Part shown: positions 6,201 through 53,392 of the stretch, piece after piece | How positions within the stretch are numbered: the stretch's first letter is position 1 | Layout: each line of letters begins with the position of its first letter | Virus record (IMG/VR): IMGVR_UViG_3300045988_112440 | Reading direction: 5' to 3' (one strand) | Length of the DNA: 64,000 nucleotides | Source: a virus | Program-made: the position numbers and the translations under genes | Notes under the pieces: generated by a model | Database searches by the model: none | What the model was told of the DNA's origin: nothing | Seen by the model: only the letters and a program-made list of their open reading frames with translations

Positions 6201-6461
6201 TATTTTCAAAGTGAGTTTTGGAGACTCTACCTTTTTAATGATTCGCTTCAATGCGGCATTAACATTGCCGATGGTTGCGCCTTCGTTTACACCAAAAGCA
6301 ATCTCCACAGGAGCCTTTTTAAAACTGTTTTGAACTCCTTTAAATTGATTTTTTAACTCCTCGGTAGTAGTATCAAGAACGACCTTGACCTTTATGGCCG
6401 TTACAGAGGAAGTATCAGCACTACTTGCGTTGTTTGTATTATCCGCCATACCGTTGGTCAC
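3294..6461 (-). CDS. tail tape measure protein (TP901-type core region near C-terminus)
   Basis: 1055 aa. Long coiled-coil N-terminal part, then ...ELGANISDLVSSTADWKRLGY...SSYLISAMQGFGL...MNQIANTEPVSMNDLGIIMQKSSAAMSAAGNTYQETLSLAAAVNGVLQDADTSGTYLKTL, typical of the TMP core; hydrophobic C-terminus. Confidence 0.85.
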   Translation of the reverse strand: MTNGMADNTNNASSADTSSVTAIKVKVVLDTTTEELKNQFKGVQNSFKKAPVEIAFGVNEGATIGNVNAALKRIIKKVESPKLTLKIDESNIDAAVKKAVDKAQSGAKNAKAEVKVNLNTNEAKQKLDAFYRRVQEKGSLYKDALKLESSGKNQPELEEVLRQLQAVRNEAGRLRTELVNILPTEEFSKISEIERATTNSISRLEARLQGLKNAANDGALKALKKSQSDQTNTYLNNLADANNKYKNFSGASDVKSSLADVQKQIDILNTLETGTQDYVNQLKVVADTWADATRQMSTFDEAQKKAENHVKSMTEQALKWKESIKDSDTASQELRDSIDGIIDASKKLDSDHSSDAYKKGVKDLDDAFISAKASMSVYTDGYKDLESTARRTLTEIRKKELELEQAGNHSFDSVLIGDSKTNSLDGSLESQLNSLKGMNTQSATYKQRVSDIVDEWLKVKIQIEQALKSEEDLQKEAEQKHGQVRSKQAAYNTIQNRLSSTEFTRKNSVALGQFNTGVLDDGKTGQQVLAELDAAMKQLDENKGPTEFKATLSQVDDLLVQVRKHIDDALGQSRQTKTANTDTDKIENLMRTLYQYKETLHGFEGSKFEAEYNELFDAIKNNSYSFEEAQMKVSKFQNACHQAGLETETLGQKLSRLFKEHFQTAIAMAGVAMVKQGLREVYDNVLELDTAVTELKKVSKMTGDEMNEYLDRTATNARELGANISDLVSSTADWKRLGYTDKDSEELARVSALMANVGDQIDNATTASSYLISAMQGFGLVADDAERLLDCMNQIANTEPVSMNDLGIIMQKSSAAMSAAGNTYQETLSLAAAVNGVLQDADTSGTYLKTLSMYLRASKTDAENAGIATDGMADSVSELRSELKQLAGVDIMKDNNTFKSTYQIMKELSEVWKNLSDTTQANITELISGKRGGQSTSALLNNFSVAEDAMKQALNSSGSAMRENQTYMDSLQAKLNQLDSAFQKFSTDLMKSDIPKFFVDLATVFVDGADNAVKFAGALPTLTAAISGVLSVMQMSGKLKNGAGKVNMPSYVCCV

Positions 6462-6489
6462 CTCTCTTTTCCATTTTCAACATTCCTTT

Positions 6490-6538
6490 CAAAACAAAAA
6501 AGAGAAGCGGCCAGCTCCTTAAAGCCGGCCCTCCTCTC
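6490..6538 (-). terminator. rho-independent terminator between 6580-7137 and the tape-measure gene
   Basis: GC-rich imperfect hairpin 6501-6537, followed on the - strand by TTTTTTGTTTT. Confidence 0.5.
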
Positions 6539-7147: not shown

Positions 7148-8137
7148 TCAAATCTCAAACCGATCCTTTGCGGACTGAATCTTGGTCGTATCCTTCTTGA
7201 TGTAATACTTGTTGGTCACATCCGTACCAGCATGGTTAAGCAGGGAAGATACGTCTTCCAGACTCATACCGGCATTCTTCAACAGAGTAGCACCACTGTG
7301 CCGGAAATCATGCGGATGCAGCGTTGGCTCATCAATCATCTCGCCAATCTTCTTACACCAGTCACCGGCAGTGCTTGAGGTAATCGGCATCCATGCACCA
7401 TTGATTTTCGTACCAACGAACACATAGCCACCATCCTCAATATCATGCTCAGTGCGATACTCTTTCAGTTCTTTCAAAAGCTCAGAAACTTCCTTACTAA
7501 ACATCAAATCTACGATTTTACCTTCTTTTTCCAGAACGTCATGCACCATGCGGTTCTCATAGTCGATAGACTTCCAAAGCGTATTCCGCACAGCATTGAC
7601 ACGAGCCATCGTTGATAGCGAGAACAGTGCATACAGACGCAGCGTCATCGCATTATCCTTCATGTGAACGGTGGTCGCAGATTCAACCAGAGCGTTCAGC
7701 TTCTCTCGCATCAACTTAACCTCATCAGGCGTAAGGTATGTCTGCTTCACAACAGCCACATCCTTGGTCGGTCGGTCAATGAACTCCATCGGATTTTCTT
7801 TGATGATTTTCTTCTTGCGAAGATACCGGTACAGCGCAGAAATCGTACTCATACGTCGCTTCATACGAGCAGAGTTATTTCCATGCTTCTTACAATAGAA
7901 CAGAAATTCCTCAATATCCTCTTCCTCAAGTTCCGTCACAGGAGCATTACCCTGATTGTCCAGAACATAAATCATCCACTGCTTGAAATCCGATTCATAA
8001 TTGTAAACAGTAGACGGGCTGAGATCACGGATGCCCATATCAGTCTCATATCTATCCCAGTATTTCAAAGACACTGGGTTTACGTTTTTGAACTTCTCAG
8101 CATCCCATAACTTCAGCGGTTTACTTCTTGTAGCCAT
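7148..8137 (-). CDS. tyrosine recombinase (XerC/D or phage-integrase type, catalytic residues present)
   Basis: 329 aa; SAM-like N-terminal domain; ARVNAV (Arg I), HPHDFRHSGAT (HxxR), LLNHAGTDVTNKYY (His..Tyr). Confidence 0.85.
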   Translation of the reverse strand: MATRSKPLKLWDAEKFKNVNPVSLKYWDRYETDMGIRDLSPSTVYNYESDFKQWMIYVLDNQGNAPVTELEEEDIEEFLFYCKKHGNNSARMKRRMSTISALYRYLRKKKIIKENPMEFIDRPTKDVAVVKQTYLTPDEVKLMREKLNALVESATTVHMKDNAMTLRLYALFSLSTMARVNAVRNTLWKSIDYENRMVHDVLEKEGKIVDLMFSKEVSELLKELKEYRTEHDIEDGGYVFVGTKINGAWMPITSSTAGDWCKKIGEMIDEPTLHPHDFRHSGATLLKNAGMSLEDVSSLLNHAGTDVTNKYYIKKDTTKIQSAKDRFEI

Positions 8138-8171
8138 ATTAAAATTCCCTCCAACCCACCTCTAAAAGTGT

Positions 8172-11161: not shown

Positions 11162-11631
11162 CCCACAAGGTCATCCAGATCCTGCGTCTTGAACGTCATA
11201 ATTCGCACACGATGGTGTAAATCCATATTGTCCTCGATATTGGATGTGATTTTAAGCTGTTTGATTCCAAAAATTGTACTGCCGTGTAGTTCTTTTTCCA
11301 CAAGACCACTCAGATAGTCAACTCGTGTTGCACCACCATGGCCCTTCATTTTCATCAGCGCCTGGTTCACAATAACCCATACAGTAAGTGTGAAGTTTTC
11401 ATACCAGTCGTTGACGTTGCTTCGGTCAGTCATATTTACCTTAAAACAAATATAGCTGTGCGCTGCCTCAATCGTGTCAGGAATATGGAAGTATGGGAAG
11501 ATGTATGTATAAATCGCCTCGTCAGGCTCTTCAATGTCATCATTGCCCATCGCTTCAACAAGCCCATCAGTATTAACCAGCTTCAAGGCCAATTTGTTTT
11601 TATAATCAGTAATCAATTCACTCGTTGTCAC
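11152..11631 (-). CDS. hypothetical head-tail joining protein
   Basis: 159-aa ORF, translationally coupled on both sides. Confidence 0.6.
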   Translation of the reverse strand: MTTSELITDYKNKLALKLVNTDGLVEAMGNDDIEEPDEAIYTYIFPYFHIPDTIEAAHSYICFKVNMTDRSNVNDWYENFTLTVWVIVNQALMKMKGHGGATRVDYLSGLVEKELHGSTIFGIKQLKITSNIEDNMDLHHRVRIMTFKTQDLDDLVGCG

Positions 11632-12653
11632 AGCAAACTCACCACCTTACATTCAATGGATGCATTTGCTGTACCATCTGCATTCGTCAAAGAAATCCTA
11701 ACAGTTGCGCCGTCCATAATACTATTATTCAAAATACGAATTTTAAAAGTACCATCGTCGGCAGTCTGCGTTTCTACAAATTCCTTGAATTCCTCAAGGC
11801 AAACGAACTTCCACTTAGCAATTTCAGTAATTTCCTCGCCAGCAACACTTGTGAACATAGGAGAGAATTTTTTCCAAGAACCACCAATACGAACCTCTGG
11901 TTTTCCTACATACTTTATAGTAGCTGTCACACGAGAATCTATTTCTGATTCGTCGATTTTGTTTGGCTCAAAATAATCACAAATCATCTTCTCAGCATTA
12001 TCCGTCTTACTGTTATACTGATCCTGCCGGATGTTCAACACAAGGAACCCCTGTGTCCTACCATGCAGTTCGTAACGCTCTGTACTCTGGTCAACAGAAG
12101 TCGTAACATACGTTTTCGGCTCGCCATTGATAATTTCCAACATAAAGCGCTTATCAAGGTCAATCAGTGCGGTCTCGTCATCAAAAGGCATCTGTACTTT
12201 ATATTCACGTTGACTCAATGAAGTCATGATAATCTCCTTATTATTTGCGTAATAAGGCTTACTCAGTGTTGCCCAACGAGAGACTATCTCACCAGTAATC
12301 GGATTTTGCCATTGGATTTGACGGTTACACAGCTCCATTTTTCCACGAAGAAAAATTTCATCGTTTGGTTCAATCTCAGTTACCAGCTATTTACAATTGT
12401 AGCAGTCAACAATGTCGCCAAGATTCAAAGAATCACCAGGATAAGCCCAGATTTTCTTTTCCTTAGCAATACTATTACTGCGACTAACAACCAGCTTCTG
12501 AGGTAAACCATTCACAAGAGCATTATCCTCGTAATCAACGCTATCTTTAAAATGTGCAGCAAAATCTCGCTTTGCAAAAGCAATTTTGACATCCTTTTTG
12601 TTAGACATTTTTGCGGCACCACCAACAGCTCGTGCCCTTGTATAAAAGTCCAT
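11628..12653 (-). CDS. structural protein with one in-frame TAG (12387-12389); C-terminal Ig-like segment
   Basis: The 88-aa ORF (12387-12653) and the 236-aa ORF (11628-12338) share one frame. A single TAG plus 16 open codons separates them: ...DIVDCYNCK-TAG-LVTEIEPNDEIFLRGKMELCNRQ... No convincing RBS before the internal ATG. Confidence 0.6.
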
Positions 12654-18802: not shown

Positions 18803-20653
18803 TTAGAAGTCAATGTTAGAAATACAAATCGGCGGAGCAGTCATTGTCTCCACCGCAGACTGGCGCACTTTATCCTTACGACGTAATTCGTATAGACGAT
18901 GAGCAAGTAAAATTGCAACATAGAACCTATCATCGTGAATTTTGTTGGCAACATCGGGTGCCAAAGCATATGTTACGGTCGTATTTTCAGAGTTTGTCGT
19001 TTTCTGAATACTTGTGATCTCGTTCTTCATCAAGTCGATGTTAACCCACGCAGTCTGTTCCTCTAAGGAAAGTTCATGCGTCTTCAAAATTTCTTGACCA
19101 GTTGATTTATCCACACCGTCTACTACCTGAACATAATCTCCGCCGTTGTATTCAAGAGGGAAATGAATGACACCAAGATTCATCAGCTCAATAAATTCCT
19201 CAACCATTGCAGTGCGGAATTTACGAGGACTAATTAGACGTAGCTTATCAACAGCATCTGGGTAACGGGTATCATATCCTTCATATAATTCATGATTTGC
19301 GTCGATAAAACCACGATGTTCTGCACCTGTTTTATCAGTCCAATTGTTAAGTAAACCGTCCGCATATGTGGAAGTACCACCGCCACCAGCGCCTTGGTCA
19401 ATCATCAATCTATCAATGTACTCATAATCAGGATTTTGACCATTGTAATGTAGAATCAACTCATGTAACTGCTCAAGCTGACGATTAGAATCGAGCTTGA
19501 ATTTTTTCTCGTTCGCAAGATCAACCATGTTCACGCAATTTATAATGTCGCCACACATGCCGTTTTCTGGATCGTTATAAATGCGCATAACGCCAACAAT
19601 AGAGTTATCCATTGTGCGGGCAGGATCAAACGCAAGAATATACTGATAGTTCCTATCCCAATAAAGCTGTGGGATATACTTTCGCTCATTGCGACGAACC
19701 GTACCCCATTTGATAATCTGGTTTACGCCACCATCACGGCTTGGTCGATTATAATACTCACGCAATGCCTTCATTTTATTTGACTTTAGAGCTGCATCTA
19801 CCTTGTCTTGTGTCAATAGTGCTTTGTATGGCTTACCCTTCATATAAACTTTGATTGCAACGTCACAAATCATATCACAAACAAAATAATCTCGATCTCC
19901 TGCAATCATGCGCTTTGCAAATTGCTTGTAGTATTTATAAAAAAGCTTGTCCATCGTGTCCTGACTTGAAGCATAAACTAGCTGAGTAGGAACCTGACGA
20001 GGCTGCATTTCAGGATTATAGTCACTGTCAGTGTCAGTGACGAAATCCGTATTCTGTGTTGCAAAAGCTTCACAGACAACAATCAGTTCGTCGGAGCAGA
20101 ATGCCGCCTCATCAAAGAAAATAAGACTAGCTCGCTTGCCACGCACACCATCTGGGTTGGAGTTCAAAGTGTTAATAGAACTACCGTTATAAAACTCAAC
20201 AACATACCCGGCGGGATTATGACTAAAACCACTTTTGTTGGTTGCAGACTTTTTCGTTTCTTTCTCTGCAATATCTTGCAGACTACGGATAGACGCAGCC
20301 GTCTTACCAACACGAGTAACAATTTCCTCGATCTTATTAAATGTCTCTTTTGCCTGATCACCTACATTACTTACAATGTAAATAGACTGGTTCTCATATA
20401 ATATTGCCTTTAGGATAATGAAAACAGAACCTACAAAAGACTTGCCAAAGTTTCGACTACACGCCTAAAGAACATGACTTGCATTCCAGCTTTGTTCCAG
20501 CATATATGCCTGAGCGTCAAATAATTGGATACCCAATAAATCTCTAGCCGCAATAACAGGATTGCGCCGATAGAATGCAATCGTTGCCGCATCACACTCA
20601 TAAATCTTACGTTTTGCGGCTGTAATAATAGGCGCTCTTTGTTTCATCCTCAT
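18803..20653 (-). CDS. terL: terminase large subunit with one in-frame TAG (20465-20467)
   Basis: N-terminal ORF ends ...QSWNASHVL-TAG. The same frame continues ACSRNFGKSF (Walker A) for 100 open codons into the 454-aa ORF (LIFFDEAAF Walker B, nuclease half). No independent start for the downstream part. Confidence 0.8.
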
Positions 20654-21777
20654 ACGGCATCACCATCCGTATCTTTTACACTTGCGTCAACACCGGCATC
20701 TTCCAACAGCTCCTTGAGCCGCTGATTCTCAATCAAAGACAGCCTGTATTTTTCTTTCGCGTCATCACTTTCTTTCTGAAACTTATCAATCAGTTCTCTT
20801 TGTATATCGAAAATTTCCTGCTGGTCATTTTCGTCAAAGAAAGCGTTTTCCTTGATTGCCTTAGAGCTCATATCTGCCGCCCATTGAGTGCCAGGAGACC
20901 GTAACTGATCGTAGAAGTTTGCTTCTGCGCCAGCAATATCCTTTTCACGCATATCCTTCATTAAGAATGTAAGCGTATTACGTCCTGCATCCTTGTTGGA
21001 ACGGTTCTTGACAGAAATCTCATTTTCCTTTGCAATCTTGTCGTTATTAGAAACTAGCTTAACCTTAATGTCATTCAGACTTTTGATTGCCTCAGCCGAG
21101 TTCATCGGGTTTAAGCGGGCAATCTGCAAGTCGATTTGTCGAATCTGATTATTATTGTTCACGACTTGAACAATCTGAGATAGCTTGAATGGGTCGTCCT
21201 CAATACCATCCTCAAAATACTTAATGAGTTCGCTAAATAGATATCGGCGGTCGCTTTCGTTATAACCATCAAATGGATCGTATCCAATAACAGAAATACA
21301 ATCATCCTTGGCTTGAATCTCTGCTTTCGACCACTTTTGTTCCTTCTCTTCCTGTAGATCAAGAGCATTCTTGTTCAGTTCTCCATTTACAAGAGTATTA
21401 GAGAAGGTTTGAAATTGATACTGTCTGCCGTTTAAAACAAGGCGGTTATACGCGCCGGGACGACAAGTTCCAGAATTTGCAACAACCGAATCATAAAGAC
21501 TGTTATAAAACGGAACATCCAAAATGTGGCAAAGCAACATACAAGCCGTTCTATCACTACCAAATCGTCTTGAGAAATCATCAAACATTTCATTTACACA
21601 TTCCTTGCAAACAGGAACGTAATTGTCGTTTGCTTTCCAAAAGCCATATGTATTTTTATAGAAGTGACCAACTGCCACATCATATTCTTTACCACAACGC
21701 AGGCATTTGAATGTCTTCTTGTTCTCGGTTCCTTCAAGAATAACGCCATCCTCAACAACCTTTTTCTTTCTAGGCAA
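20650..21777 (-). CDS. putative terminase small subunit/DNA-packaging protein with N-terminal zinc ribbon
   Basis: Start moved to TTG 21775-21777, 7 nt after a GGAGG RBS; CLRC..CKEC; overlaps the terL start. Confidence 0.45.
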   Translation of the reverse strand: MPRKKKVVEDGVILEGTENKKTFKCLRCGKEYDVAVGHFYKNTYGFWKANDNYVPVCKECVNEMFDDFSRRFGSDRTACMLLCHILDVPFYNSLYDSVVANSGTCRPGAYNRLVLNGRQYQFQTFSNTLVNGELNKNALDLQEEKEQKWSKAEIQAKDDCISVIGYDPFDGYNESDRRYLFSELIKYFEDGIEDDPFKLSQIVQVVNNNNQIRQIDLQIARLNPMNSAEAIKSLNDIKVKLVSNNDKIAKENEISVKNRSNKDAGRNTLTFLMKDMREKDIAGAEANFYDQLRSPGTQWAADMSSKAIKENAFFDENDQQEIFDIQRELIDKFQKESDDAKEKYRLSLIENQRLKELLEDAGVDASVKDTDGDAV

Positions 21778-22166
21778 ACAAACACCTCCATTCAAAATCA
21801 AAATAAAAGCCGTAGAACGTGCGCACATCCTACGGCAAACAAAAGATCCACCCTCATGAGCACCAATAATCTGGGAGGCCGGGTGGATTTAATTCTATAA
21901 AAGACCTGCTATGATACGCATCGTTGAGAGGCTGAACAGGTTCTGTTCAAAATTCGACCTCAGCATTTTGACACCGTAGTGAGCTAAGGTCTTTATCATC
22001 TATTTGGGCTTACGCCCTGCCGACGAATCGGCTGAATTTTGTATTTACGGCCAGCTTTACGCCGACCGTGCCACCTGAAATACACAGGCAGGACTGTTCA
22101 TAAAAGGACCTACCGCCAGAGGGAGTAGAAAACTGGCGATAGGCTTGCGAAAGGGGAGATGTTGGG

Positions 22167-22239
22167 TGCAGGTGCGGGAGTCAGACCCGCCCAAGGCACA
22201 GCTTATGAGGCTGGCTAGTACATCGGCACTATCACCTGC
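22167..22239 (-). other. degenerate tRNA-like element (anticodon-loop CUCAUAA, CAU)
   Basis: 6-7 bp acceptor-like stem GCAGGTG/CACCTGC and a GCGGG/CCCGC arm. T loop is TCTGACT, D loop lacks GG, and spacing is non-canonical. Confidence 0.25.
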
Positions 22240-22345
22240 GACATATGATGCCTAAGTGTCATCTACTACCAAATCGTGTGCACATCACAGGTTTGCCATA
22301 GATCGACTTCGGACTTGCCTCCAACCGCGAATTGGAAGCCATTTT

Positions 22346-22422
22346 TGGCACGCCCAGAGAGACTTCAACTCCCAAGAGGCAGATTTAGAGTCTGCTGTTT
22401 TAAGCAATTAAACTATAGGCGC
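22346..22422 (-). tRNA. suppressor tRNA, anticodon CUA (reads UAG)
   Basis: Hand-folded cloverleaf: acceptor GCGCCUA/UGGGCGU, D stem GUUU/AAAC, anticodon stem GCAGA/UCUGC, loop CU-CUA-AA, 5-nt variable loop, T stem GGGAG/CUCUC, G73, encoded CCA. Confidence 0.85.
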
Positions 22423-22451
22423 ATAAAACCTACCTTTTAGCCGGTGGTAGG
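22423..22451 (-). terminator. hairpin plus U-tract abutting the 5' end of the suppressor tRNA
   Basis: On the - strand: CCTACC-N11-GGTAGG, then TTTTAT, immediately before tRNA position 1. Confidence 0.4.
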
Positions 22452-22486
22452 GAACCGGTATAATATAGGCCCTCCGGGAGAAGGAC

Positions 22487-22578
22487 TGGCGCGGTCTCAG
22501 AGATTCGAACTCTGGCATCGGGTTTACCGACCTAACGGTGTTCAGGACCGTTCTCTTCAACCACTTGAGTAAGACCGC
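22487..22578 (-). tRNA. tRNA-Ser(UGA), type II with long variable arm; unusual C at position 33
   Basis: Acceptor GCGGUCU/AGACCGC, 3-bp D stem, anticodon stem ACGGU/ACCGU, loop CCUGAAC, variable arm with UCGG/CCGA stem, T arm CAGAG-UUCGAAU-CUCUG, G73, CCA encoded. Confidence 0.75.
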
Positions 22579-22773
22579 ACAATAAAACAAGCACTTATCA
22601 AACCATCCGAGCTAGTTGAATTGTTCTCGTGTCGATAAAACGCTTGTTTTAGACTTTTAAAGCTTCGCATTAACGTAGCGAAACACGATTGGCTTGGCAT
22701 TTTGCTTCTCAAAGCTACTCTGCGTCTGACTTTACAGCTTATACACGGTTGCAACCAATGACCGCTTTTGCCA

Positions 22774-22844
22774 TGCCACCTACAGGAATCGAACCCGTAT
22801 GTGAAAAATACAAATTTCCCATTCTACCATTAAATTAAGGCGGC
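22774..22844 (-). tRNA. tRNA-Thr(UGU)
   Basis: Acceptor GCCGCCU/AGGUGGC, D arm AUUU-AAUGGUA-GAAU, anticodon stem GGAAA/UUUUC, loop UU-UGU-AU, T arm ACGGG-UUCGAUU-CCUGU, A73, no encoded CCA. Confidence 0.85.
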
Positions 22845-22966
22845 ACGATAAGCTGGAGCAATCACCCCAGCCCATAGAAAAGGAGACAACAAATGATGTC
22901 CCAAGCAGACCTTGCGGTCGTACTTCTTTTTTAATTACCCACTTAAATTGGTAGGGTTTCACCGTT

Positions 22967-23971
22967 TTAATTCAAACGCACAATATGCGTTTTACTCTCG
23001 ATCAACTTTCCATCCCTGTCCTGATAGACAATAATGAAGCCTTCTCGCTGAGAAGTGGTCAACTTGCCCTCTGCATACTGCATCTTAGAAGACTCACAGC
23101 AACAACCCTGCTCATATACAACAGCTCCGTCACCAATATCGTAATGACCGCACTTGTGAGTGTGAGCGAGAACCACTGCATTGATGTCCTTAAATCCGTT
23201 ATCGCGGAAGTATCTGAATGCCTTCTCAGCAGTCTTCAGTAACCCAGATGAGTAAGTCAGCGGATGCACAAAGACGGTATCACCAATCTGACTAAAATAA
23301 GTATCGTTATAAACAATCTCGATACCAGTACCATTGAACACCTCAATCAAAGGGTCATAATGGACCTTTGTATGAAGTTCCTTGTTATAATGGTTGAAAC
23401 CATCAACAAAAATAAGCTCCAAAGATGTCTTCGGCATCAGTTCAAGTAGGTCGGTGTCCAGATTCTTAGCAAGGTAATTCTGAAAACGCAAGTCATGATT
23501 GCCATAATTGATAACAACCTTCTTGGGCTGAAGCATTTCAATCAGATCAATCATATACTGACGAGCAATCAGGATTTCCTCCATTGGACTTTTACGATAT
23601 ACTTTTAGGAAGCGAGAAATGGAGCTGCAGTCTACCAAATCTCCGTTTACCTGAAGGATATCAATCTTTCCAGCATACTCACTAAAAGTCTCGATGGGCT
23701 TCTGGAATGGAATATGTAGGTCGGAAATAGACAGAATGCCGGTTCCTACATCTCTATTAGATAAGGACTCCTGATACTGCATACCCGCACGGAATGCTTT
23801 AAAACGCTTGCGATATGTGCACTCACCAAAATTCTTACCCAACTCATCATTGAGCACCTTGGATGCGCCATCCCAAGTCAACTCTCTAGCCAGAACAGCA
23901 TTCCCGATTCTTACAAAGAAGTCATCGCTCGTTTCTTCTGGCCGTTTATTATAGCAACCCATTGGCATCAA
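22967..23971 (-). CDS. calcineurin-like metallophosphoesterase
   Basis: 334 aa; ISDLHIPF, VNGDLVD, NYGNHD and VLAHTHKCGH motifs after an N-terminal domain of about 70 aa. Confidence 0.8.
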   Translation of the reverse strand: MMPMGCYNKRPEETSDDFFVRIGNAVLARELTWDGASKVLNDELGKNFGECTYRKRFKAFRAGMQYQESLSNRDVGTGILSISDLHIPFQKPIETFSEYAGKIDILQVNGDLVDCSSISRFLKVYRKSPMEEILIARQYMIDLIEMLQPKKVVINYGNHDLRFQNYLAKNLDTDLLELMPKTSLELIFVDGFNHYNKELHTKVHYDPLIEVFNGTGIEIVYNDTYFSQIGDTVFVHPLTYSSGLLKTAEKAFRYFRDNGFKDINAVVLAHTHKCGHYDIGDGAVVYEQGCCCESSKMQYAEGKLTTSQREGFIIVYQDRDGKLIESKTHIVRLN

Positions 23972-24156
23972 GCTGGGTCGCCCAGCAGCTCATCAGAAGT
24001 GGAAATATTGATGGTGACACCCTCAATACCATCCCACTTTGCCAGAGCTTCCGTCAGATTGAAGACGTTCTCGCCATCCTTGGTGATCTCGGTGATAGTG
24101 CCCTCTGCAGTATCAATAATAGCGTTCTTAAAAACAACACTCTTCTTAGCAACCAT
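23968..24156 (-). CDS. small hypothetical protein (possibly YonK-like)
   Basis: 62 aa, AAGGGAG RBS. The family guess comes from memory of small SPbeta-type proteins only. Confidence 0.55.
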   Translation of the reverse strand: MVAKKSVVFKNAIIDTAEGTITEITKDGENVFNLTEALAKWDGIEGVTINISTSDELLGDPA

Positions 24157-24933: not shown

Positions 24934-25557
24934 TTAATTGAATTCATCCACATCATCGCAAATCTTATCTACAATGCCAAAGTTGACCTGCTCATTAGCG
25001 TCCAGATACCAATCCTTCGCTTTATTCTTGGTCATAGTCTTCTTATCAATGGTAGAGTGAGCCATAATATACTCACGCATCTTTGCAACCTGCTTCTCGT
25101 AGTAGTCCATAGCCATCTTAGACTGCTCAAAAGTACCCTGCGTACCGCCAGAGCCACTATGAATCAATGCAGTAGAATGAGGCAGAGCAAAGCGCTTCTG
25201 ACCAGACAGCAGCATCACAAGAACAGCGCTCATTGCAATACCTGCGTTGATCGTCCAAACAGGAGTCTTACTCAGCGCAACAACATCAATAAAGCTAAAC
25301 ATCGCATCCAACTCGCCACCATAGCTGTAAATAAACAGCTTAATAGGTTTGCGCTGCTCAATAGGAGTATTCTTGTCGATACGGTTGTATTGAAGAATCT
25401 TTCGCTCAATTTCAATCAGAGACTGGTCAATCTCAAAATCAATAAAAAAGATGCGATCCTTCTCGTCAACGTAGAAGTTCATCATCTCAGGAGAGGGGAG
25501 ACCACCACCATTCATCAGGTTTGTAATCTCCTCGGGCAGCTGAATTTCAAAATCCAA
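24934..25557 (-). CDS. clpP: ClpP-family serine protease
   Basis: 207 aa; GIAMSAV (Ser), ALIHSGSGG (His) and a downstream Asp in ClpP-like spacing. Confidence 0.75.
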   Translation of the reverse strand: MDFEIQLPEEITNLMNGGGLPSPEMMNFYVDEKDRIFFIDFEIDQSLIEIERKILQYNRIDKNTPIEQRKPIKLFIYSYGGELDAMFSFIDVVALSKTPVWTINAGIAMSAVLVMLLSGQKRFALPHSTALIHSGSGGTQGTFEQSKMAMDYYEKQVAKMREYIMAHSTIDKKTMTKNKAKDWYLDANEQVNFGIVDKICDDVDEFN

Positions 25558-25582
25558 AGTCTGTACCTCGTTCTTTCATAAA

Positions 25583-25914: not shown

Positions 25915-26670
25915 TCATAAATCAAACATTTTTCTATTTTGTGCGGTTTTCTCAATATTTACGTTTTTAGCGCACTTACGACAGTATTTTTGTCTGCGTC
26001 CGGTGCGAGCAACCATCTTTCCGCAACAATCACACTTGATGTACTCTTTCCCACAATACTGACTCCACAGAATACCAGCATTCTCAAAATCGTCCACAAA
26101 AATCTCATGAGGAGAATCCGGCTCTGCAATCAAAATATGGATGTTCAAGTTGTCAATCTTTTTCAAGCTGGCAAACCCAATAAAGCCAAGATTATGTAAC
26201 TCACAGATCATCTCGTTCTGTTTTTTCTCATTTGCAGATACGTTTGCCATCCTGAAAATATCAGCCGTATCTTCCGTAATCCAGTAGTTGCATTTTTCAT
26301 TAACGGCAATATGGTATTTTGCCAGACACAGCATTGTGAACATCAGGCGTTGCATCTGCTTGCTTTCAAGTGCTTGAATCTTCTCTACCTCAGCCTTTGT
26401 AATGCACACACCATCAAGTTCCACCATAGGACGACCCTTTGCAGAAGCAATTGCTTTATCAATCAGCTCTCTATCTAGAACCTTGTTATACCCTTCAAAA
26501 TGACGCAGCATATACTCGTTAAGCTTTTCTCTTACGTCATCCTTTGAGTATCCCTTATAGAAATAATACTTCGCAATATAATGCAAAACATGCCCCGCTT
26601 TCTTCCAAGGCACATCCTTCTCTAGCCATTCTTCAGCGTAAAGAACTTCATTCAATACAATCATCCGCAT
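25915..26670 (-). CDS. hypothetical protein with C-terminal zinc ribbon (possible RNAP accessory/regulator)
   Basis: 251 aa; CDCCGK..CRKC; overlaps the RNAP-like gene end by 23 nt. Confidence 0.6.
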   Translation of the reverse strand: MRMIVLNEVLYAEEWLEKDVPWKKAGHVLHYIAKYYFYKGYSKDDVREKLNEYMLRHFEGYNKVLDRELIDKAIASAKGRPMVELDGVCITKAEVEKIQALESKQMQRLMFTMLCLAKYHIAVNEKCNYWITEDTADIFRMANVSANEKKQNEMICELHNLGFIGFASLKKIDNLNIHILIAEPDSPHEIFVDDFENAGILWSQYCGKEYIKCDCCGKMVARTGRRQKYCRKCAKNVNIEKTAQNRKMFDL

Positions 26671-29431
26671 CCTCCTTGCTATTCATGTCAACCAACACAT
26701 CCTTGAAACGCTTGCCGTCATATTCAATATCGCCATTCTCATCCTGCACAAGAGAATGCACCATACCATTATGGCGTTCCAATAAACGTTTAATCAAAGT
26801 ATCATGGAACAACTCCCAGACGATTGCAATACTGGACGCATTCTTTTTACAAAGATCAAGCAGAATGTCGCAAAGCACATCGTCATTAGAACACTTATCG
26901 TGAAGATTGCGGAACATACTTTCCTGATACAGCGCAATTCGCTCCTTGCGGTCTGCGCCGGTTTCCTTATTATTATTTCCGTTACCAGAATGGATTGCGT
27001 TGCCACGAGCAAATCTCAAATAGTCCTTAAAGATAGAGCGGATGCCATAGTATTGAGAATTAGTGTATTCAACGCCATACTTGAGCGAATCATAATCAAA
27101 CTTGCGCTTTATCTTGAGTTCTTCCTCAAAATCCTCCAATTCATCCTCAACGGTCCAGCATAGGCGGTTCATAGTACAAGAGTTGATTCCGACCGGCATC
27201 CGATAAATGTAATACTGGATAACCATTTCATCCACGTCGTCCTTGACGGTCTTTTGCATAATCTCATCCAGACCGGCAAACCCATCCCACTTGATGCGCT
27301 TGCGAGCTGCGGCCACATACTGCTTATAATCACGCATCTGAGCAGGGTAGATGTAGCTCATAAAGTACGGCTTACGCCATGCGCAAATACTACTCCAAAA
27401 CTTCTTATCCTCGATAGTATCAGGATTATCATCGTCTTTAGCAGCACAAGCTTTGTTGTCATACCAATACTGCGGCATAGGTACGCAAGAAATTCCCTTT
27501 ATGCGATCAATTGTATCTTGTTGATATTTCTGGCCAGAAATAATACGATATGTAAGCTCTTTATATTCTCTACTTTCTGGCTCAAATTTACTCTGTACAT
27601 CAAACATTGTGGTGATACGATTGGTTACCTTGCCGATATCGTCACCAAATCCATTGATGTTAGATTCAATGAAATCCTGCTCGGTTGGAACTTTCTTTTC
27701 ACCTTTTTTCTGAGCGCAAAGAATTACAGTCTCGTTTCTCCATTTATCAAGGAGAATTCTATTGTCTGTACTGAAAATAAGATCGCCATCCCAATCCATT
27801 CCATCTAGTGCAGCACACGTATTATCAAACGCACTTACGATAGCCACCGTTTTAATGTAGCGATACCAATTCTTGCATTCATCACTCGAATTTAAATCTA
27901 AACACCGAATGTTTGCCATTTGACTCATCGGTGCTCTAAAGCAGGCTACCCGCTTAACATCGCGGTCGTTCCAGAATCGGCTGTAAACCTCTCCAGCTTT
28001 TAACAGTCCAGTAACTTCCATTCCAAAGATAGATTGACAAAGCGCATAAGGGTCTCCACTTGCCACTTGGAAATTCCCTCGTACTTTCACAACACCCGTT
28101 TTTGCTTGCGAAATTCGCTTTTTAATAAAGTACCGAATCCGATTCTGCACATAAGGGTCGTTAATCATTTCCGGCTCAATCATAAGAGCCTTAATATAGT
28201 CGTTTTCCAGACTGTTTATGTAATTCGGGTCATCACGCATTCCACTACCACGCAAATACAGCAACGCATCACGCCAGTCACCGCCCATGACGCCCTTGAT
28301 CTCATCCAAAGTTGGCTTCACGAGCTCATGTATCTCTTCGTTCGTAAGCTGATAGCTTTGAATAAACTGATAATTCAAGTTACGCTCTTCATCAAGCTCC
28401 AACTCACAAGTCTTTGTTACAGAGAAATGGTAGTGATTTTCCTGGCAATTCTCAAAGTAGTCCTCGCAACTATGATAACTATCCCACAACTTGAGCATCG
28501 ACCCTGTGAGAATCACCTGTACGCGATTAACATCCTTGTAGTTCCCCCAAATATCGCGTACCATGTTCTGTTTCGCTACCTTCTTAGCAAACTCGCGAAA
28601 AGGGAAAGGGAATAACATGCCTTTACAAAATGCGTTGCGTACACAAAAGCCAGATGCGGTGGATGGTAGCTTCAAATCCTCACTCCATTGCTGTGCGAGA
28701 TCGTAACTGATGAGTCCAAAACCGTCGCTTGCACAAAGCTCACAGTCCTGCTCAGGATTCTCCACCATTGTAGGTTCACCAGACACTCCGTCATCCAGAA
28801 CGATTACATGGTCTTTAAAATGCGTGAAACAATCATCTACAACAAGCACACCGTCAGGGTCAGTAACAGGAATAGATGCGGAGCAGGCGAGAGCCCTGTA
28901 GGCTTCTAGCTTTGCCGGAATGAACTCCATTCCTTTGTTACGGCCATTATCGATTCGCTTGCGGATCTCATCAATAAGACAGTCACTTACAAACACAATC
29001 GTGCTGTTCTTAACACCACCGGTAGTCCCAACCAAGCGGCGATATGTGATTCCATTGATTTTAAACCCCTTTGGAGAGCAAGCCCGGCGGTAATCATTCT
29101 TCTTATCTACTACCAGGCACATATAATCCGGCTTGAATTGAACTGCGTCCAGCTCAGTATACAGCCTCCGAATCTCCCGTCGGTTCTCTAAACAAGATGG
29201 CTCATTCCGCAACATTTTAATTCTACGCTTGATGCTCCGTGCCTTAGCCTCTGCGTCCGTAACACCATTCAACTCATCAATCCATCGTAGAACAGTGCTA
29301 TCAGCAAGCGAGATGATTTCGTGATTTCGTCTGGCTTCATCCAATGGTAGAGTTAAATCCCATTTTGTTTCAACTAGACGCTTCGTATGGATCTTAAAAA
29401 CAAACTTTTGGCAAGTTTGCTGCTTTGCCAT
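26648..29431 (-). CDS. single-subunit double-psi-beta-barrel RNA polymerase-like protein (YonO / cellular-RdRP-like)
   Basis: 927 aa; ...VACFRAPMSQMANIRCL..., then about 45-50 residues on, AALDGMDWDGDLIFS (DxDGD metal-binding loop). Confidence 0.6.
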   Translation of the reverse strand: MAKQQTCQKFVFKIHTKRLVETKWDLTLPLDEARRNHEIISLADSTVLRWIDELNGVTDAEAKARSIKRRIKMLRNEPSCLENRREIRRLYTELDAVQFKPDYMCLVVDKKNDYRRACSPKGFKINGITYRRLVGTTGGVKNSTIVFVSDCLIDEIRKRIDNGRNKGMEFIPAKLEAYRALACSASIPVTDPDGVLVVDDCFTHFKDHVIVLDDGVSGEPTMVENPEQDCELCASDGFGLISYDLAQQWSEDLKLPSTASGFCVRNAFCKGMLFPFPFREFAKKVAKQNMVRDIWGNYKDVNRVQVILTGSMLKLWDSYHSCEDYFENCQENHYHFSVTKTCELELDEERNLNYQFIQSYQLTNEEIHELVKPTLDEIKGVMGGDWRDALLYLRGSGMRDDPNYINSLENDYIKALMIEPEMINDPYVQNRIRYFIKKRISQAKTGVVKVRGNFQVASGDPYALCQSIFGMEVTGLLKAGEVYSRFWNDRDVKRVACFRAPMSQMANIRCLDLNSSDECKNWYRYIKTVAIVSAFDNTCAALDGMDWDGDLIFSTDNRILLDKWRNETVILCAQKKGEKKVPTEQDFIESNINGFGDDIGKVTNRITTMFDVQSKFEPESREYKELTYRIISGQKYQQDTIDRIKGISCVPMPQYWYDNKACAAKDDDNPDTIEDKKFWSSICAWRKPYFMSYIYPAQMRDYKQYVAAARKRIKWDGFAGLDEIMQKTVKDDVDEMVIQYYIYRMPVGINSCTMNRLCWTVEDELEDFEEELKIKRKFDYDSLKYGVEYTNSQYYGIRSIFKDYLRFARGNAIHSGNGNNNKETGADRKERIALYQESMFRNLHDKCSNDDVLCDILLDLCKKNASSIAIVWELFHDTLIKRLLERHNGMVHSLVQDENGDIEYDGKRFKDVLVDMNSKEDADDCIE

Positions 29432-29462
29432 TCGGCAGTCACCTCCATGTTCTTTTTGAACG

Positions 29463-29482
29463 TATCCTGTATTTTATAGCTA
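29463..29482 (+). promoter_or_regulatory. 20-nt conserved element copy 1 (TATCCTGTATTTTATAGCTA)
   Basis: One of 7 copies; sits about 15 nt upstream (gene sense) of the RBS of the RNAP-like gene. Confidence 0.6.
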
Positions 29483-32851: not shown

Positions 32852-33782
32852 CGAGTATTTCTAGTGCCTATTATAATAAGGTATATTTTGGAGAGTATTG
32901 TTCTCTATAAATGACATTTAGATACTTTGTGTGTTCTGTGTAAGCTGCCAGAGGCTACAATTATGCTTATTAAATGTGTCTGGAGTCTCTAAGGGTGCTG
33001 CTCAGATGCCAGATCAGTCTATTTATGGCGATAGGGGAGTATGGATGAGCATAAATAGGTACTTTATACTCCGAAGAATGGTCATTTTCGGTACATTTTG
33101 GGTACACATCGGGAAAACCTGCATGAATCCTAGCTTTTTCGGATTTTATTGAGCTAAAAAGGAACAAAATAAGTGGTAAAAAGATACAAATAAAAAGAAA
33201 AACTAGCCAAAATATAACGAAAATACGTTAAATTCTAGCTAGTTACCGAATGAGCTACCGATTGAAAAATAGCGATTTTAAGCCATTTTTATGTATTTTG
33301 AGTGGAAAAATGAGTGATTTGTGAGTATGTGCAGGAGAGGGTATAGGGGTGTATTTTAGGATGATTTTGTCAGGGAAATGTACCCGGGTAGGAACAGGTT
33401 AAATAGTTAGATTGAGTTGATAGGATAGATAGAGGTTGTTGTGATTGAAAGAGAATGGTATTTTTGTGGAAATTGTTGTGCAGAATGTATAGAGAGCAAG
33501 AGAAGATGAAATTCATAATTGGTAATTATGAACAAGAAAGATGTACTGGGATCTCAGCCTGCTGCCTGGAATGTCTCAAAAATGAAAAGTATCCCCCATG
33601 GGGAAAAGCCGCTTTTGTGCAAAAAGCGGTATTTGCTTTAATTGAATAAAGTGCCTGTTTTGGCACTTTCCAGGCCGGGAATTATTCCTACTTTTCCGGT
33701 ATGTTTATAGCATTGATTTTTGCCAGGAATTGAATTTGCAAATTAGTTGCATTTTCGTCGTGTTCGATATCAAAATGATATC

Positions 33783-33826
33783 AAATGTTGCGTGTGCAAC
33801 ATTTTGTAAAGTATTTTTACTTTACA
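33783..33826. repeat. two adjacent perfect 9-bp hairpins
   Basis: AAATGTTGC-gtgt-GCAACATTT and TGTAAAGTA-tttt-TACTTTACA, back to back in AT-rich DNA. Confidence 0.7.
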
Positions 33827-33870
33827 TCAATTATGCTATTCTCTATATCTTGTATTCAATTCACAAAAAA

Positions 33871-33963
33871 CCACAATATCTAGTATCTATCTATATTGTT
33901 CAATATCGCACTATCCACAATATCTAGTATTCAACCATTCGTTCAAACCACAATATATAGTAT
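33871..33963 (+). repeat. three direct 16-nt iterons CCACAATAT(C/A)TAGTAT
   Basis: Copies at 33871, 33915 and 33948, so spacing is 44 and 33 bp (multiples of 11). Palindrome ATATTGTTCAATAT lies between copies 1 and 2. Confidence 0.7.
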
Positions 33964-47771: not shown

Positions 47772-47936
47772 ATGAAATATATTATTGAAGATTGGTTGAC
47801 GGAAGAAATAATTAAAGTTTTTTCAAGTGAAGAAGAAAGAAATGAATGGATTGAGGACAATTGTACATGGTTTAGTGATGGATGCTTTATCACGGACACA
47901 GAAACAAAAATTTCAATTTATGAATCAAAACAATAG
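47772..47936 (+). CDS. hypothetical small acidic protein; the only gene here ending in TAG
   Basis: Start ATG 47772 (TGGAGA RBS); 54 aa; stop TAG 47934-47936. Confidence 0.45.
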   Translation: MKYIIEDWLTEEIIKVFSSEEERNEWIEDNCTWFSDGCFITDTETKISIYESKQ

Positions 47937-53154: not shown

Positions 53155-53379
53155 ATGATGAAATATGGAAACATAACGTGTAAACGATGTGGGGCTACGT
53201 GGTATGGGCCAAAGTGTGGAAAGCTTTATTGTGATAATTGCAGAAGGATTGTGGATAGAGAAAAAGATATTAGATGTAAAAATAAAAAGAAACACAAACC
53301 GACATTTGTTGAAATTACAAGAATGGCAGATGCAGAGGGACTGTCCTATGGCAAGTATTGTTTAAAATATGGAATCTAA
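53155..53379 (+). CDS. zinc-ribbon small basic protein
   Basis: Start ATG 53155; CKRC..CDNC; 74 aa. Confidence 0.55.
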   Translation: MMKYGNITCKRCGATWYGPKCGKLYCDNCRRIVDREKDIRCKNKKKHKPTFVEITRMADAEGLSYGKYCLKYGI

Positions 53380-53392
53380 AGGAGACGCAAAT

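Follow-up and report, generated by a model that had tools for sequence, protein, structure and literature searches.

Stop-codon recoding by dedicated suppressor tRNAs has been described in crAss-like phages, Lak phages, phAss-1 and other gut phages, in which TAG is read as glutamine (code 15) or TGA as tryptophan (code 4). TGA read as glycine has also been described, in phages whose hosts use that code too. These three were the assignments described in the phage literature that we searched, and reading of TAG as tryptophan was not found there. Here we describe a tRNA gene, which we call SupA, in a stretch of 64,000 nucleotides from the IMG/VR virus record IMGVR_UViG_3300045988_112440 (the window, here always the whole stretch analysed). 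As in the recoded gut phages, the SupA phage carries a suppressor tRNA with a CUA anticodon in what is presumably a standard-code host, has in-frame TAG codons in the large terminase (TerL) and structural genes, and avoids TAG as a terminator. Unlike those phages, it belongs to a lineage of SPbeta-like temperate siphophages of Bacillota, its TAG codons align with tryptophan and its tRNA is of the Trp rather than the Gln type. Whereas recoding affects 28% of the ORFs of phAss-1, here it is very sparse (0-3 sites per ~30 kb) and polymorphic within near-identical genomes. The many interrupted genes and low code-11 coding density of code-15 phages are likewise absent from the window, in which the coding fraction under the standard code is a crude 0.86.

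The laboratory point mutant su7 of E. coli (Yaniv et al. 1974, as cited in PMC2965240) is an amber suppressor allele of trpT in which the CCA anticodon of tRNA-Trp is changed to CUA, recognition by TrpRS is lost and the tRNA is charged by GlnRS. SupA carries the same change at position 35 on a G73 tRNA-Trp body, which likewise gives a reader of UAG. It differs from su7 in that the comparative evidence points to tryptophan, in that it comes from an old family whose variants have diverged (47-78% identical to one another) and in that its acceptor stem is not host-like (G1.U72, C2-G71). That Trp identity can survive the CCA-to-CUA change is known from yeast tRNA-Trp(CUA) (PMC2965240), which, unlike SupA, comes from a eukaryote, carries A73 as its discriminator and plays no part in natural recoding. 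The tRNAs associated with theta (HDV-like) ribozymes resemble our locus in that suppressors lie in gut-phage arrays with a conserved structured RNA adjoining (Kienbeck et al. 2024). However, a search of the region around SupA (21800-23000, E<=5) matched no HDV-like or other Rfam ribozyme family, no further Rfam family turned up around the tRNA either, and CCA is encoded in SupA but in only 4.5% of the theta-associated tRNAs (Kienbeck et al. 2024). SPbeta itself shares the gene order YonO ... YonK-YonJ-...-YonG-YonF(TerL)-portal, with homologous Pfam families, but no tRNA array is annotated in its yonH-yonE stretch, the part compared, and the TerL encoded here is only 28-29% identical to YonF.

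The suppressor tRNA and its family

The initial annotation of this DNA had folded by hand a cloverleaf with anticodon CUA, G73 and an encoded CCA, and had proposed that a tRNA scanner be run on the region. ARAGORN placed a minus-strand tRNA with its ends at exactly 22346 and 22422 and its anticodon, cta, at position 35. The Rfam tRNA model RF00005 aligned to it over its full length (model positions 1-71 of 71) with a score of 53.1 bits against a gathering threshold of 29 (E=1.4e-8 over the whole window). The 77-nt SupA has a 7-bp acceptor stem (GCGCCUA/UGGGCGU, with wobble pairs G1.U72 and U6.G67), a 4-bp D stem, a 5-bp anticodon stem, a 5-nt variable loop, the T stem GGGAG/CUCUC and a CCA encoded after G73. 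Its 7-nt anticodon loop, CUCUAAA (C32-U33-C34-U35-A36-A37-A38), contains U33 and a purine at position 37. The D loop, AAUUGCUUA, is devoid of GG and the T loop is UUGAAGU, both as first read, and the canonical G18G19 and T54-Psi55-C56 are absent. Identical copies of SupA occur in 25-29 related contigs. The single-sequence minimum free energy (MFE) fold of SupA is not a cloverleaf (z=-1.57), and its structure rests instead on the covariance model and on covariation across the family. SupA is a bona fide tRNA with the anticodon CUA.

ARAGORN labels SupA as tRNA-Pyl, a label that reflects the anticodon alone and that we rejected. Pyl-type tRNAs have a short variable loop and an elongated anticodon stem, whereas the corresponding elements of SupA are the 5-nt loop and the standard 5-bp stem given above. 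The codon evidence presented below and the presence in the family of members with a canonical GG/UUCGAAU elbow also count against the label, and a scan of 26 window proteins revealed no pyl genes.

At least 10 variants with a CUA anticodon, SupA among them, make up the family. The tRNA array is modular, and as cassette alternatives these variants fill the slot that in sister genomes (L024, L033, L036, L052, L058, L063, L068 and L077) holds a phage tRNA-Trp(CCA). The tRNA-Trp(CCA) has the acceptor stem, G73 and CCA of the CUA family, and its loop, CUCCAAA, fits the family pattern CUC[U/C]AAA; it is 64-66% identical to SupA and 75-78% identical to the variant SupD. Shared acceptor stem, G73, CCA, loop and slot together indicate that SupA derives from the tRNA-Trp lineage. 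A Trp origin had been proposed at the outset from a loop one base away from the Trp-type CUCCAAA, and the sister tRNA in the same slot carries that very loop. The likeness of the T stem to that of E. coli tRNA-Trp, which had been offered as further evidence, is coincidental, because T stems differ completely among family members.

In the family alignment, 97.6% of cells were paired compared with 75.5% in shuffles, slid controls were 34-53% paired, and none of 500 shuffles reached the observed covariation score. Thirteen of the 21 pairs changed on both sides, and all 10 pairs of the anticodon and T stems covaried. By contrast, four of the seven acceptor pairs never varied (G1.U72, C2-G71, G3-C70 and C5-G68), and G73 was invariant in all 12 aligned members, with CCA and the anticodon loop likewise fixed across the family. 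The swapped 19-56 tertiary pair that had been guessed for SupA was also recovered: positions 19 and 56 form a Watson-Crick pair in 12 of 12 aligned members, as G:C, A:U or, in SupA, C:G, while the variant L407 has A:A. ARAGORN misses the SupB and SupC variants, so a family-specific pattern was used for detection. A second phage group carries a SupG subfamily, in loci that are short and contain no reference proteins.

The tRNA array in the late region of an SPbeta-like prophage

The array lies on the minus strand and starts with a tRNA-Thr(UGU) (22773-22845; ARAGORN, Rfam 57.1 bits), with a tRNA-Ser(UGA) (22487-22578; ARAGORN, Rfam 50.4 bits) upstream of SupA. A cryptic tRNA-like element (22163-22240, minus strand) with a CAU anticodon and an initiator-like C1xA72 mismatch occupies the slot in which relatives have a tRNA-Met(CAT). 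This element drew no ARAGORN or Rfam call and was recognised by comparison with relatives and by its cloverleaf-like MFE fold. A terminator-like hairpin (12 bp, six of them G-C, at 21836-21809) with a T-run, called by the consensus scan alone (21800-21836, minus strand), closes the non-coding stretch of the array and separates it from the yonG-like and TerL genes. The 3' end of SupA is ~520 nt upstream of the longest yonG-like ORF and ~1.7 kb upstream of the TerL start, which corrects an earlier placement about 570 nt upstream of the terminase genes.

Immediately upstream of the array, also on the minus strand, are a yonK-like gene (23968-24156; YonK found on identical neighbours) and a yonJ-like metallophosphoesterase gene (22967-23971; Pfam Metallophos, with YonJ_N on identical neighbours), so that the tRNAs sit between homologs of yonK/yonJ and yonG/yonF. 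A YonO-like single-subunit RNA polymerase is encoded at 26648-29473 on the same strand (Pfam RdRP PF05183, E=7.8e-15; synteny). YonO is the late-gene RNA polymerase of SPbeta (PMC5467207), and by synteny the array probably stands at the head of a late operon transcribed by a YonO-type polymerase.

We classify the phage as an SPbeta-like prophage whose hosts are probably gut Clostridia. Relatives were found in an Anaerovorax genome, in a Eubacteriales MAG and in one 8-kb contig binned as Bacteroidota, and the phage is often found integrated in contigs of 350-745 kb, such as ERZ1761047 contig_2591. It is very common in human-gut metagenomes, its exact PhoH protein being indexed in 2341 blocks of the sequence collection. 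Against cultured phages, a DNA-level search gave trivial matches only, and the TerL proteins recovered by a protein search were SPbeta-like and phiCD211-like, at 25-28% identity. No phage aminoacyl-tRNA synthetase was found in the window, and the host synthetase is therefore presumably used.

In-frame TAG codons and their exchange with TGG

The gene for the large terminase, a yonF/TerL homolog (18803-20653, minus strand; Pfam Terminase_6N and TerL_ATPase, PHROG TerL families), requires read-through of one TAG. This codon, at 20465-20467 on the minus strand, is residue position 65 and lies one codon before Walker A (HVL-TAG-ACSRNFGKS; surrounding peptide DLLGIQLFDAQAYMLEQSWNASHVL[X]ACSR). No plausible restart occurs until a TTG at 20167, which is downstream of Walker A. 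In relatives this column holds TGG in 138 loci and TAG in 75; it holds Trp in homologs at 64-69% identity, whereas the TerL proteins of SPbeta and of C. difficile phages have Tyr or Leu there, Tyr being the residue of SPbeta YonF. The second gene, a 345-aa stop-to-stop frame delimited by translation, belongs to the virion module, between the head genes and the tape measure (11628-12653, minus strand). Its single in-frame TAG is at 12387-12389 on the minus strand (CYNCK-TAG-LVTEIE; context peptide [X]LVTEIEPNDEIFLR), where relatives have TGG in 54 loci and TAG in 27, and where Trp is found even in homologs of 27% identity. These two are the only internal TAG codons in the window's 32 kb of late genes. 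The 'TAG-containing terminase operon' of the initial annotation thus stands as far as TerL is concerned and was overstated for the operon as a whole. At most two of about 112 genes may end in TAG. In the plus-strand early region, a TAG at 47934-47936 looks like a true stop and is followed by an in-frame gene start; this region was left out of conclusions on TAG, as it holds many tiny genes and the query set there included out-of-frame ORFs. The yonG-like gene (20650-21828, minus strand; Pfam YonG_N on identical neighbours, PHROG 3314), the true start of which is probably downstream of 21828, has TAG in place of its Trp84 codon in 5-7 loci of relatives.

We surveyed TAG codons in more than 100 related genomes by tblastn with curated coding-strand proteins; an all-six-frame survey was dropped, being swamped by out-of-frame ORFs. 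Loci of one contig were linked by exact overlaps. Locus counts are not independent events because many contigs are close relatives, and site counts are the safer measure. Among relatives there were 10 independent Trp-to-TAG sites, at least six of them in more than one contig, compared with no late-gene Trp-to-TGA site (Fisher p=0.0016). Ten of the 15 internal TAG sites fell on Trp, although TGG accounts for only 5.7% of those sense codons that a single step separates from TAG (p about 9e-10). Gln-to-TAG was limited to four singletons, two in genomes without the suppressor and two in suppressor-bearing genomes (L045 and L163), even though Gln codons are 3.5 times as numerous as TGG. Nonsense singletons of several kinds (Y to TAA, Q to TAA, Q to TAG and W to TGA) form a background in these assemblies. 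The TAG sites lie in TerL, yonG-like, portal-like, integrase and minor virion-module genes, and in the relatives surveyed neither the tape measure nor the candidate capsid-region gene yielded one. Distant homologs have Trp at both window sites and Trp, Phe or Tyr at the other sites, never Gln.

Recoding density ranged from 0 to 3 sites per genome over the surveyed region of ~30 kb, and TGG and TAG alternated at the same sites among near-identical genomes. Among genomes in which the array was covered, 39 had both a TAG at a Trp position and an intact CUA tRNA, 21 had the CUA tRNA only, 36 had neither and two had a TAG without an intact CUA tRNA (Fisher p=1e-9). In those two genomes the suppressor is truncated inside the anticodon. 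In this comparison TAG thus replaces TGG at conserved late-gene Trp codons only where such a suppressor is present or visibly once was.

Identity of the inserted residue

The codon substitutions favour Trp over Gln as the residue inserted at TAG. Trp had been the first guess from the tRNA, with Gln as the alternative, and the exchange of TAG with TGG at 10 sites, together with Trp in distant homologs, argues for that guess. The tRNA-Gln type has G2-C71, which differs from the C2-G71 of SupA.

In bacteria (E. coli and B. subtilis) G73 is the major Trp determinant, and in rice mt-tRNA-Trp G1-U72 is one (PMC9976931). Of the B. subtilis tRNA-Trp acceptor pairs (A1-U72, G2-C71, G3-C70, G4-C69 and G5-C68; PMC9976931), SupA, with G1.U72, C2-G71, G3-C70, C4-G69 and C5-G68, matches 3-70 alone. 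Nor does it have the Trp anticodon C34-C35-A36, carrying C34-U35-A36, while its same-slot siblings have CCA in a loop that is otherwise identical. The host could instead charge SupA with glutamine, as happens with su7, in which case this would be ordinary code 15 with Gln tolerated at former Trp positions. E. coli tRNA-Trp does become a GlnRS substrate and a poor TrpRS substrate on the change of C35 to U (PMC2965240; PMC9976931), every described TAG-recoded phage has been assigned Gln, and SupA has U35 and G73 together with G10, G3-C70 and a weak 1-72 pair, all of which E. coli GlnRS favours. The two singletons in which TAG replaces Gln in genomes with a suppressor could be taken in the same sense. 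However, exchange with CAG or CAA stays at the singleton level, the recoded sites are Trp in homologs of down to 27% identity or aromatic or hydrophobic in remote ones, and neither window TAG aligns with Gln. One of the two adjoins the TerL Walker A motif, the acceptor stem differs at 2-71 from that of tRNA-Gln, and GlnRS is absent from many bacteria. We consider charging with glutamine unlikely, although it is the strongest of the alternatives.

Decoding might also be ambiguous or deliberately inefficient, with UAG acting mostly as a stop and being decoded only in part, as Trp and perhaps some Gln or Lys, so that TAG codons mainly throttle low-copy late proteins. The gene distribution of the TAG sites, with none in the candidate capsid-region gene or tape measure, would suit such a role, as would the sparse and polymorphic recoding and the fact that a scan of window proteins revealed neither an RF1 antagonist nor RF2. 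Yet near-neutral exchange of TGG and TAG under a good suppressor predicts the same pattern, and the near-absence of TAG terminators in the window suggests long-term pressure from efficient read-through. A throttling role is accordingly given a low probability, below that of glutamine.

The spacer hairpin

A conserved spacer with two hairpins follows tRNA-Ser (22423-22486, minus strand; comparison with relatives, fold -18.9 kcal/mol). The hairpin next to SupA (22423-22451) consists of CCUACC, 11 nt and GGUAGG followed by UUUUAU, and had been suggested to act as an attenuator or terminator that gates the suppressor and so times late-protein synthesis. It is present as described and conserved, which, like the folding energy of the spacer, would allow such a role. 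However, relatives almost always carry it behind tRNA-Ser(UGA) irrespective of what comes next, be it the suppressor, tRNA-Trp(CCA), tRNA-Lys or some other element. Its U-run has only four U and is often broken in relatives (AUCUAU, AUUUAU). The terminator scan, which is limited to loops of 3-8 nt, passed over this one of 11 nt, and among the relatives compared it has no covariation support because the stem never varies. The hairpin is thus a generic module of the array rather than a suppressor-specific one, and gating by it is very improbable. Least credible of all is that the TAG codons are inactivating nonsense mutations in decaying prophages with an unrelated or non-functional CUA tRNA: the frequent integration in large contigs, the background of nonsense singletons, the two genomes that keep TAG beside a truncated suppressor and the non-cloverleaf MFE fold of SupA would allow it, but the TAG sites are Trp-specific, recurrent and common to dozens of contigs, late-gene TGG-to-TGA is absent, TAG at these sites goes closely with the CUA tRNA, compensatory change is strong in the tRNA family around a fixed acceptor stem, and TAG is avoided as a terminator.

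Discussion

Taken from the comparative sequence data, SupA is quite probably a functional phage-encoded amber suppressor of tRNA-Trp lineage in the modular array of an SPbeta-like prophage. We lean, with less assurance, towards the further reading that this is the first natural reassignment of UAG to tryptophan, caught in mid-evolution. CCA and CUA alleles of a tRNA-Trp cassette would occupy one slot in a widespread family of SPbeta-like prophages of gut Firmicutes, TGG and TAG would be interchangeable at conserved Trp codons in all genomes with the CUA allele, and the fixed acceptor stem together with G73 would let a bacterial TrpRS ignore position 35. On this model the host TrpRS would recognise SupA chiefly by its acceptor stem and G73, despite the change of C35 to U, and charge it with Trp, and UAG would then be read as Trp in competition with RF1. 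Since the array appears to head the YonO-type late operon (synteny yonK-yonJ-[tRNAs]-yonG-yonF), the suppressor would appear together with late mRNAs. The phage's own tRNA would be needed to make TerL in full length, and likewise one or more proteins of the virion module, and the suppressor would therefore become essential once the TAG was fixed.

If true, TAG read as Trp adds a new codon assignment to phage stop recoding. There would be consequences for annotation, as the standard code truncates TerL and tools that switch to code 15 on finding any suppressor tRNA with a CUA anticodon would mistranslate these genomes. Because the anticodon change flips E. coli tRNA-Trp to Gln, a natural bacterial CUA tRNA that inserts Trp would inform the identity rules; nature would have evolved the kind of Trp amber suppressor that engineers had to design, and the tRNA could serve genetic-code expansion. 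For the phages themselves, the sparse and polymorphic recoding looks like a genetic-code change in progress rather than a completed reassignment. The family would offer a population-level view of how such a change starts, with the suppressor present in some genomes and absent from others, TGG and TAG alternating, the tRNA indispensable once the TerL TAG is fixed, and two genomes keeping TAG without an intact tRNA.

The terminase gene contains an in-frame TAG

The frame of the large terminase subunit (TerL; 18803-20653, minus strand) reads MRMKQ...NASHVL-TAG-ACSRNFGKSF, and the matches to Pfam Terminase_6N and TerL_ATPase and to the PHROG TerL families begin at the Walker A motif directly after the TAG. 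The first possible start downstream of this codon is a TTG at 20167, well beyond Walker A. Judged from the frame, the terminase truly requires read-through. The other internal TAG, at 12387-12389 (CYNCK-TAG-LVTEIE), interrupts a 345-aa frame that sits between the head and tape-measure genes. The TAG at 8164 was rejected as an internal stop as it is upstream of the integrase ATG. This tyrosine integrase gene (7148-8140, minus) is surrounded by tail and structural genes of the late strand and has a Trp-to-TAG change in the related locus L111; a second integrase-family gene (53366-54238) is on the opposite, plus strand.

A crude gene call of the window gave 58 TAA, 51 TGA and 5 TAG stops. Two of the five TAGs are the internal codons in TerL and the 345-aa frame, one ends a spurious ORF over tRNA-Thr, and two are possibly real terminators, namely that of a 65-aa ORF at 33730-33927 and TAG 47934-47936, after which a gene starts in the same frame. 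With at most two possible real cases, TAG hardly ever serves as a terminator; the probability of 2 or fewer in 112 is 7e-4 if 10% are expected and only 0.08 if 5% are expected.

Searches with TerL found >190 relatives in IMG/VR. Most are contigs from the gut, 110-138 kb long, whose TerL shares 84-100% identity. Among cultured phages, the closest are the SPbeta-like phages of Bacillus and the phiCD211-like phages of C. difficile, at 25-28% TerL identity. The related loci L061-L070 carry a ~395-nt insertion in TerL (~6118-6512 of each locus), ~40 codons past the Walker A region, which resembles a group I intron (RF00028, 34.7 bits, E=4e-7, below the gathering score of 50).

A family of CUA tRNAs occupies one slot of the array

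ARAGORN called three minus-strand tRNAs in the window: tRNA-Thr(UGU) at 22773-22845, tRNA-Ser(UGA) at 22487-22578, and, at 22346-22422, a 77-nt tRNA, here SupA, whose anticodon is CTA. The initial annotation had folded this last tRNA by hand, and it is real: the scanner returned the same coordinates and the gene aligned end to end to the Rfam tRNA model at 53.1 bits against a gathering score of 29. The 'tRNA-Pyl' label printed by ARAGORN reflects the anticodon only and was discarded. As read from the sequence, SupA has the acceptor stem GCGCCUA/UGGGCGU (including G1.U72), an A/U-rich D stem GUUU/AAAC with the D loop AAUUGCUUA, which is without GG, the anticodon stem GCAGA/UCUGC with loop CUCUAAA, a 5-nt variable loop, the T stem GGGAG/CUCUC with T loop UUGAAGU, and G73 followed by an encoded CCA. 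The minimum free energy fold of the single sequence is not a cloverleaf (z=-1.57), a weak point.

The array is modular and variable among relatives, and since ARAGORN misses some family members, a family-specific pattern was used for detection. The slot between the conserved spacer after tRNA-Ser and a conserved downstream spacer holds a CUA tRNA (variants SupA-F, with SupG and others found later), a tRNA-Trp(CCA) (8 loci) or some other cassette. Common to every CUA variant and to the CCA genes are GCGCC[C/U][A/G]...UGG[G/A]CGU-G73-CCA and an anticodon loop CUC[U/C]AAA. In a 12-sequence alignment, cloverleaf pairing was 97.6%, versus 75.5% in shuffles and 34-53% with slid partners. Both sides change in all five anticodon-stem and all five T-stem pairs, and four of the seven acceptor pairs are invariant. 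Fixed acceptor and covarying stems are what selection on a working tRNA with its aminoacylation identity in the acceptor end looks like. Identity to the CCA genes is 64-66% for SupA and 75-78% for SupD, so the suppressor lineage is old and has diversified, and its members are not recent point mutants.

The swapped 19-56 tertiary pair suspected earlier was borne out across the family: 19:56 is C:G in SupA and SupE, G:C in the CCA genes and SupB, SupC and SupD, and A:U in SupF. The sole exception to Watson-Crick pairing is a SupA variant in locus L407, in which position 19 changes from C to A and 56 from G to A, giving A:A. A collection-wide pattern scan recovered CUA family members from 112 viral contigs, each 31-148 kb in length, some of which form a second phage group. 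This group (L332-L443, e.g. L333, L344 and L368; contigs of 140-148 kb) carries its own subfamily, SupG, of the same Trp-type CUA tRNA with a canonical T loop, UUCGAAU; no late-protein similarity to the window was found in the loci fetched from this group. Locus L021 (~2.4 kb region of the array) has a Trp-type body with the anticodon loop UUUAGAA, close to the reverse complement of CUCUAAA; its anticodon UAG would read CUA Leu codons.

TAG replaces tryptophan codons in late genes

We aligned the curated late-strand proteins of the window to 240 relative loci, with 80 more added later, and recorded all in-alignment stops. The TerL TAG at 20467 is TGG in 138 loci and TAG in 75, and the TAG at 12389 is TGG in 54 and TAG in 27. 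Across relatives there are ten independent Trp-to-TAG sites, at least six of them in more than one contig: TerL positions 58 and 65, yonG-like position 84, portal-like position 354, position 148 of a 524-aa head-region protein, positions 73 and 93 of gene 11628-12653, and three others. The equivalent G-to-A change from TGG to TGA occurred at no late-gene site in the survey (Fisher p=0.0016), and the one Trp-to-TGA event is a singleton in an early gene. The remaining internal nonsense events are all singletons (Gln-to-TAG four, Glu-to-TAG one, Gln-to-TAA two, Tyr-to-TAA two), and suppressor-free genomes account for two of the four Gln-to-TAG cases. The surveyed genes hold 103 TGG, 239 CAG and ~1800 sense codons one step from TAG; Trp at 10 of 15 TAG sites gives p ~9e-10, and Trp versus CAG gives p=0.0014, or 0.00016 with suppressor-bearing genomes only.

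At TerL sites 58 and 65, Trp is found in homologs of 64-69% identity, and at site 12389 even in 27%-identical homologs. Distant homologs at other sites have W, F or Y, and the TerL column in SPbeta YonF and C. difficile phage TerL is Tyr or Leu. The main caveat is charging with Gln: in E. coli the same anticodon change makes tRNA-Trp a GlnRS substrate (PMC2965240; PMC9976931), and several features of SupA are of the kind that GlnRS favours. Among the surveyed loci, CAG or CAA never stood opposite TAG 20467 or 12389, and no distant homolog compared has Gln at a Trp-to-TAG site. The codon comparisons make it probable that SupA inserts mainly Trp.

The ClpP-like gene (24934-25575, minus) has three independent Gln-to-TAG singletons among relatives L055, L163, L207 and L324, two without a suppressor, and a split gene call in one metagenomic copy. 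This gene may be dispensable and decaying.

TAG codons accompany the suppressor

Loci of the same contig were joined by exact overlap, and association was counted only in genomes with the array covered. TAG at a Trp site occurred in 39 genomes with an intact CUA tRNA and 2 without; genomes lacking such a TAG numbered 21 with the tRNA and 36 without (Fisher p=1e-9). In the two exceptions, L037/L086 and L038/L092, a deletion cut SupD inside the anticodon (~4400-4450 in L037 and L038), and a TAG persists at a Trp codon of the virion-module gene. These are probably crippled prophages, or they show that the tRNA can be lost. As both hold a truncated SupD, every array-covered genome with TAG at a Trp site has or had a suppressor. 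Suppressor-bearing genomes have 0-3 such TAGs in the surveyed region. Collectively, the CUA tRNA is conserved, covarying and of Trp ancestry, and TAGs at late-gene Trp codons occur only where it is or was present. These results support the earlier interpretation of a Trp-derived amber suppressor serving the TAG-containing terminase. SupA is almost certainly a functional amber suppressor, and its descent from the Trp lineage is very likely.

Hairpin and non-coding sequence around the suppressor

A hairpin, CCUACC..GGUAGG followed by UUUUAU (22423-22451), had been proposed to gate suppressor expression. The hairpin is present; the gating role found no support. It follows tRNA-Ser in nearly all relatives whatever gene comes next (suppressor in ~21 loci, tRNA-Trp(CCA) in 6, tRNA-Lys in ~20, other elements in ~17), its tail varies (UUUUAU, AUUUAU, AUCUAU), its stem shows no covariation among relatives, and it went uncalled in a terminator scan. 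This hairpin is a generic spacer module, possibly a processing or recombination element, and not a suppressor-specific gate. Directly after this spacer, L028, L037, L055, L064 and others have a ~110-nt conserved element, GUGAGCUUGUAAUGCG...GGUUCGAAUCCUGUCAAGCUCG, whose acceptor and T arm resemble those of a tRNA but which contains a long insert; it is uncalled by ARAGORN and Rfam.

Between the suppressor and the yonG-like gene lies ~500 nt of conserved non-coding sequence (21837-22345, minus) with several hairpins, closing in a much stronger terminator-like hairpin (21836-21809, minus; 12 bp and a T-run). An unannotated non-coding RNA near yonK has been reported in SPbeta. The stretch includes a cryptic tRNA-like element (22163-22240, minus) that neither ARAGORN nor Rfam called; its anticodon loop carries CAU, its T loop, UCUGACU, is non-canonical, and it has a C1xA72 mismatch. 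Relatives have a canonical 77-nt tRNA-Met(CAT), also with C1xA72, in the same slot. The mismatch is reminiscent of bacterial initiator tRNA.

Discussion

Phage suppressor tRNAs and late-gene recoding are established. In the literature searched, phage TAG is always assigned Gln and TGA always Trp, and Borges et al. give these as the only reassignments in phages with a code unlike their host's. Targeted literature searches found no natural UAG-to-Trp system. SupA would work like the known phage suppressor systems, yet it does not fit code 15 (TAG read as Gln), which is defined by TAG aligning with Gln; its TAGs do not. Most theta-associated phage tRNAs lack an encoded CCA, whereas SupA has one, and no ribozyme accompanying it was found.

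We propose that the host TrpRS would charge SupA by recognising its acceptor stem and G73. In bacteria G73 is the main determinant of Trp identity, G1-U72 is a Trp determinant in rice mt-tRNA-Trp (PMC9976931), and yeast tRNA-Trp(CUA) retains Trp identity (PMC2965240). UAG would be read as Trp in competition with RF1, and full-length TerL would depend on the phage's own tRNA. This dependence could be a neutral ratchet, in which TGG and TAG drift once a good suppressor exists, or an adaptive lock, e.g. one that prevents packaging proteins from being made in the lysogen.

The 941-aa protein at 26648-29473 (minus) is a YonO-type RNA polymerase (Pfam RdRP, single-subunit) with yonK, yonJ, yonG and yonF homologs downstream, in the order YonO ... 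ClpP-PhoH-YonK-YonJ-[tRNA array]-YonG-YonF(TerL)-portal. By synteny the array would lie near the head of the YonO-transcribed late operon, and the suppressor would therefore be made together with the late mRNAs. The window's PhoH has exact copies in metagenomic contigs of 350-745 kb, with Pfam YonK, YonJ_N and YonG_N neighbours, marking the element as an integrated SPbeta-like prophage. More remote TerL relatives (66-71%) come from an Anaerovorax genome and a Eubacteriales MAG. The host is probably a gut Clostridia member. The SPbeta-type late-transcription module, a YonO-like polymerase with yon homologs, is widespread in human-gut prophages.
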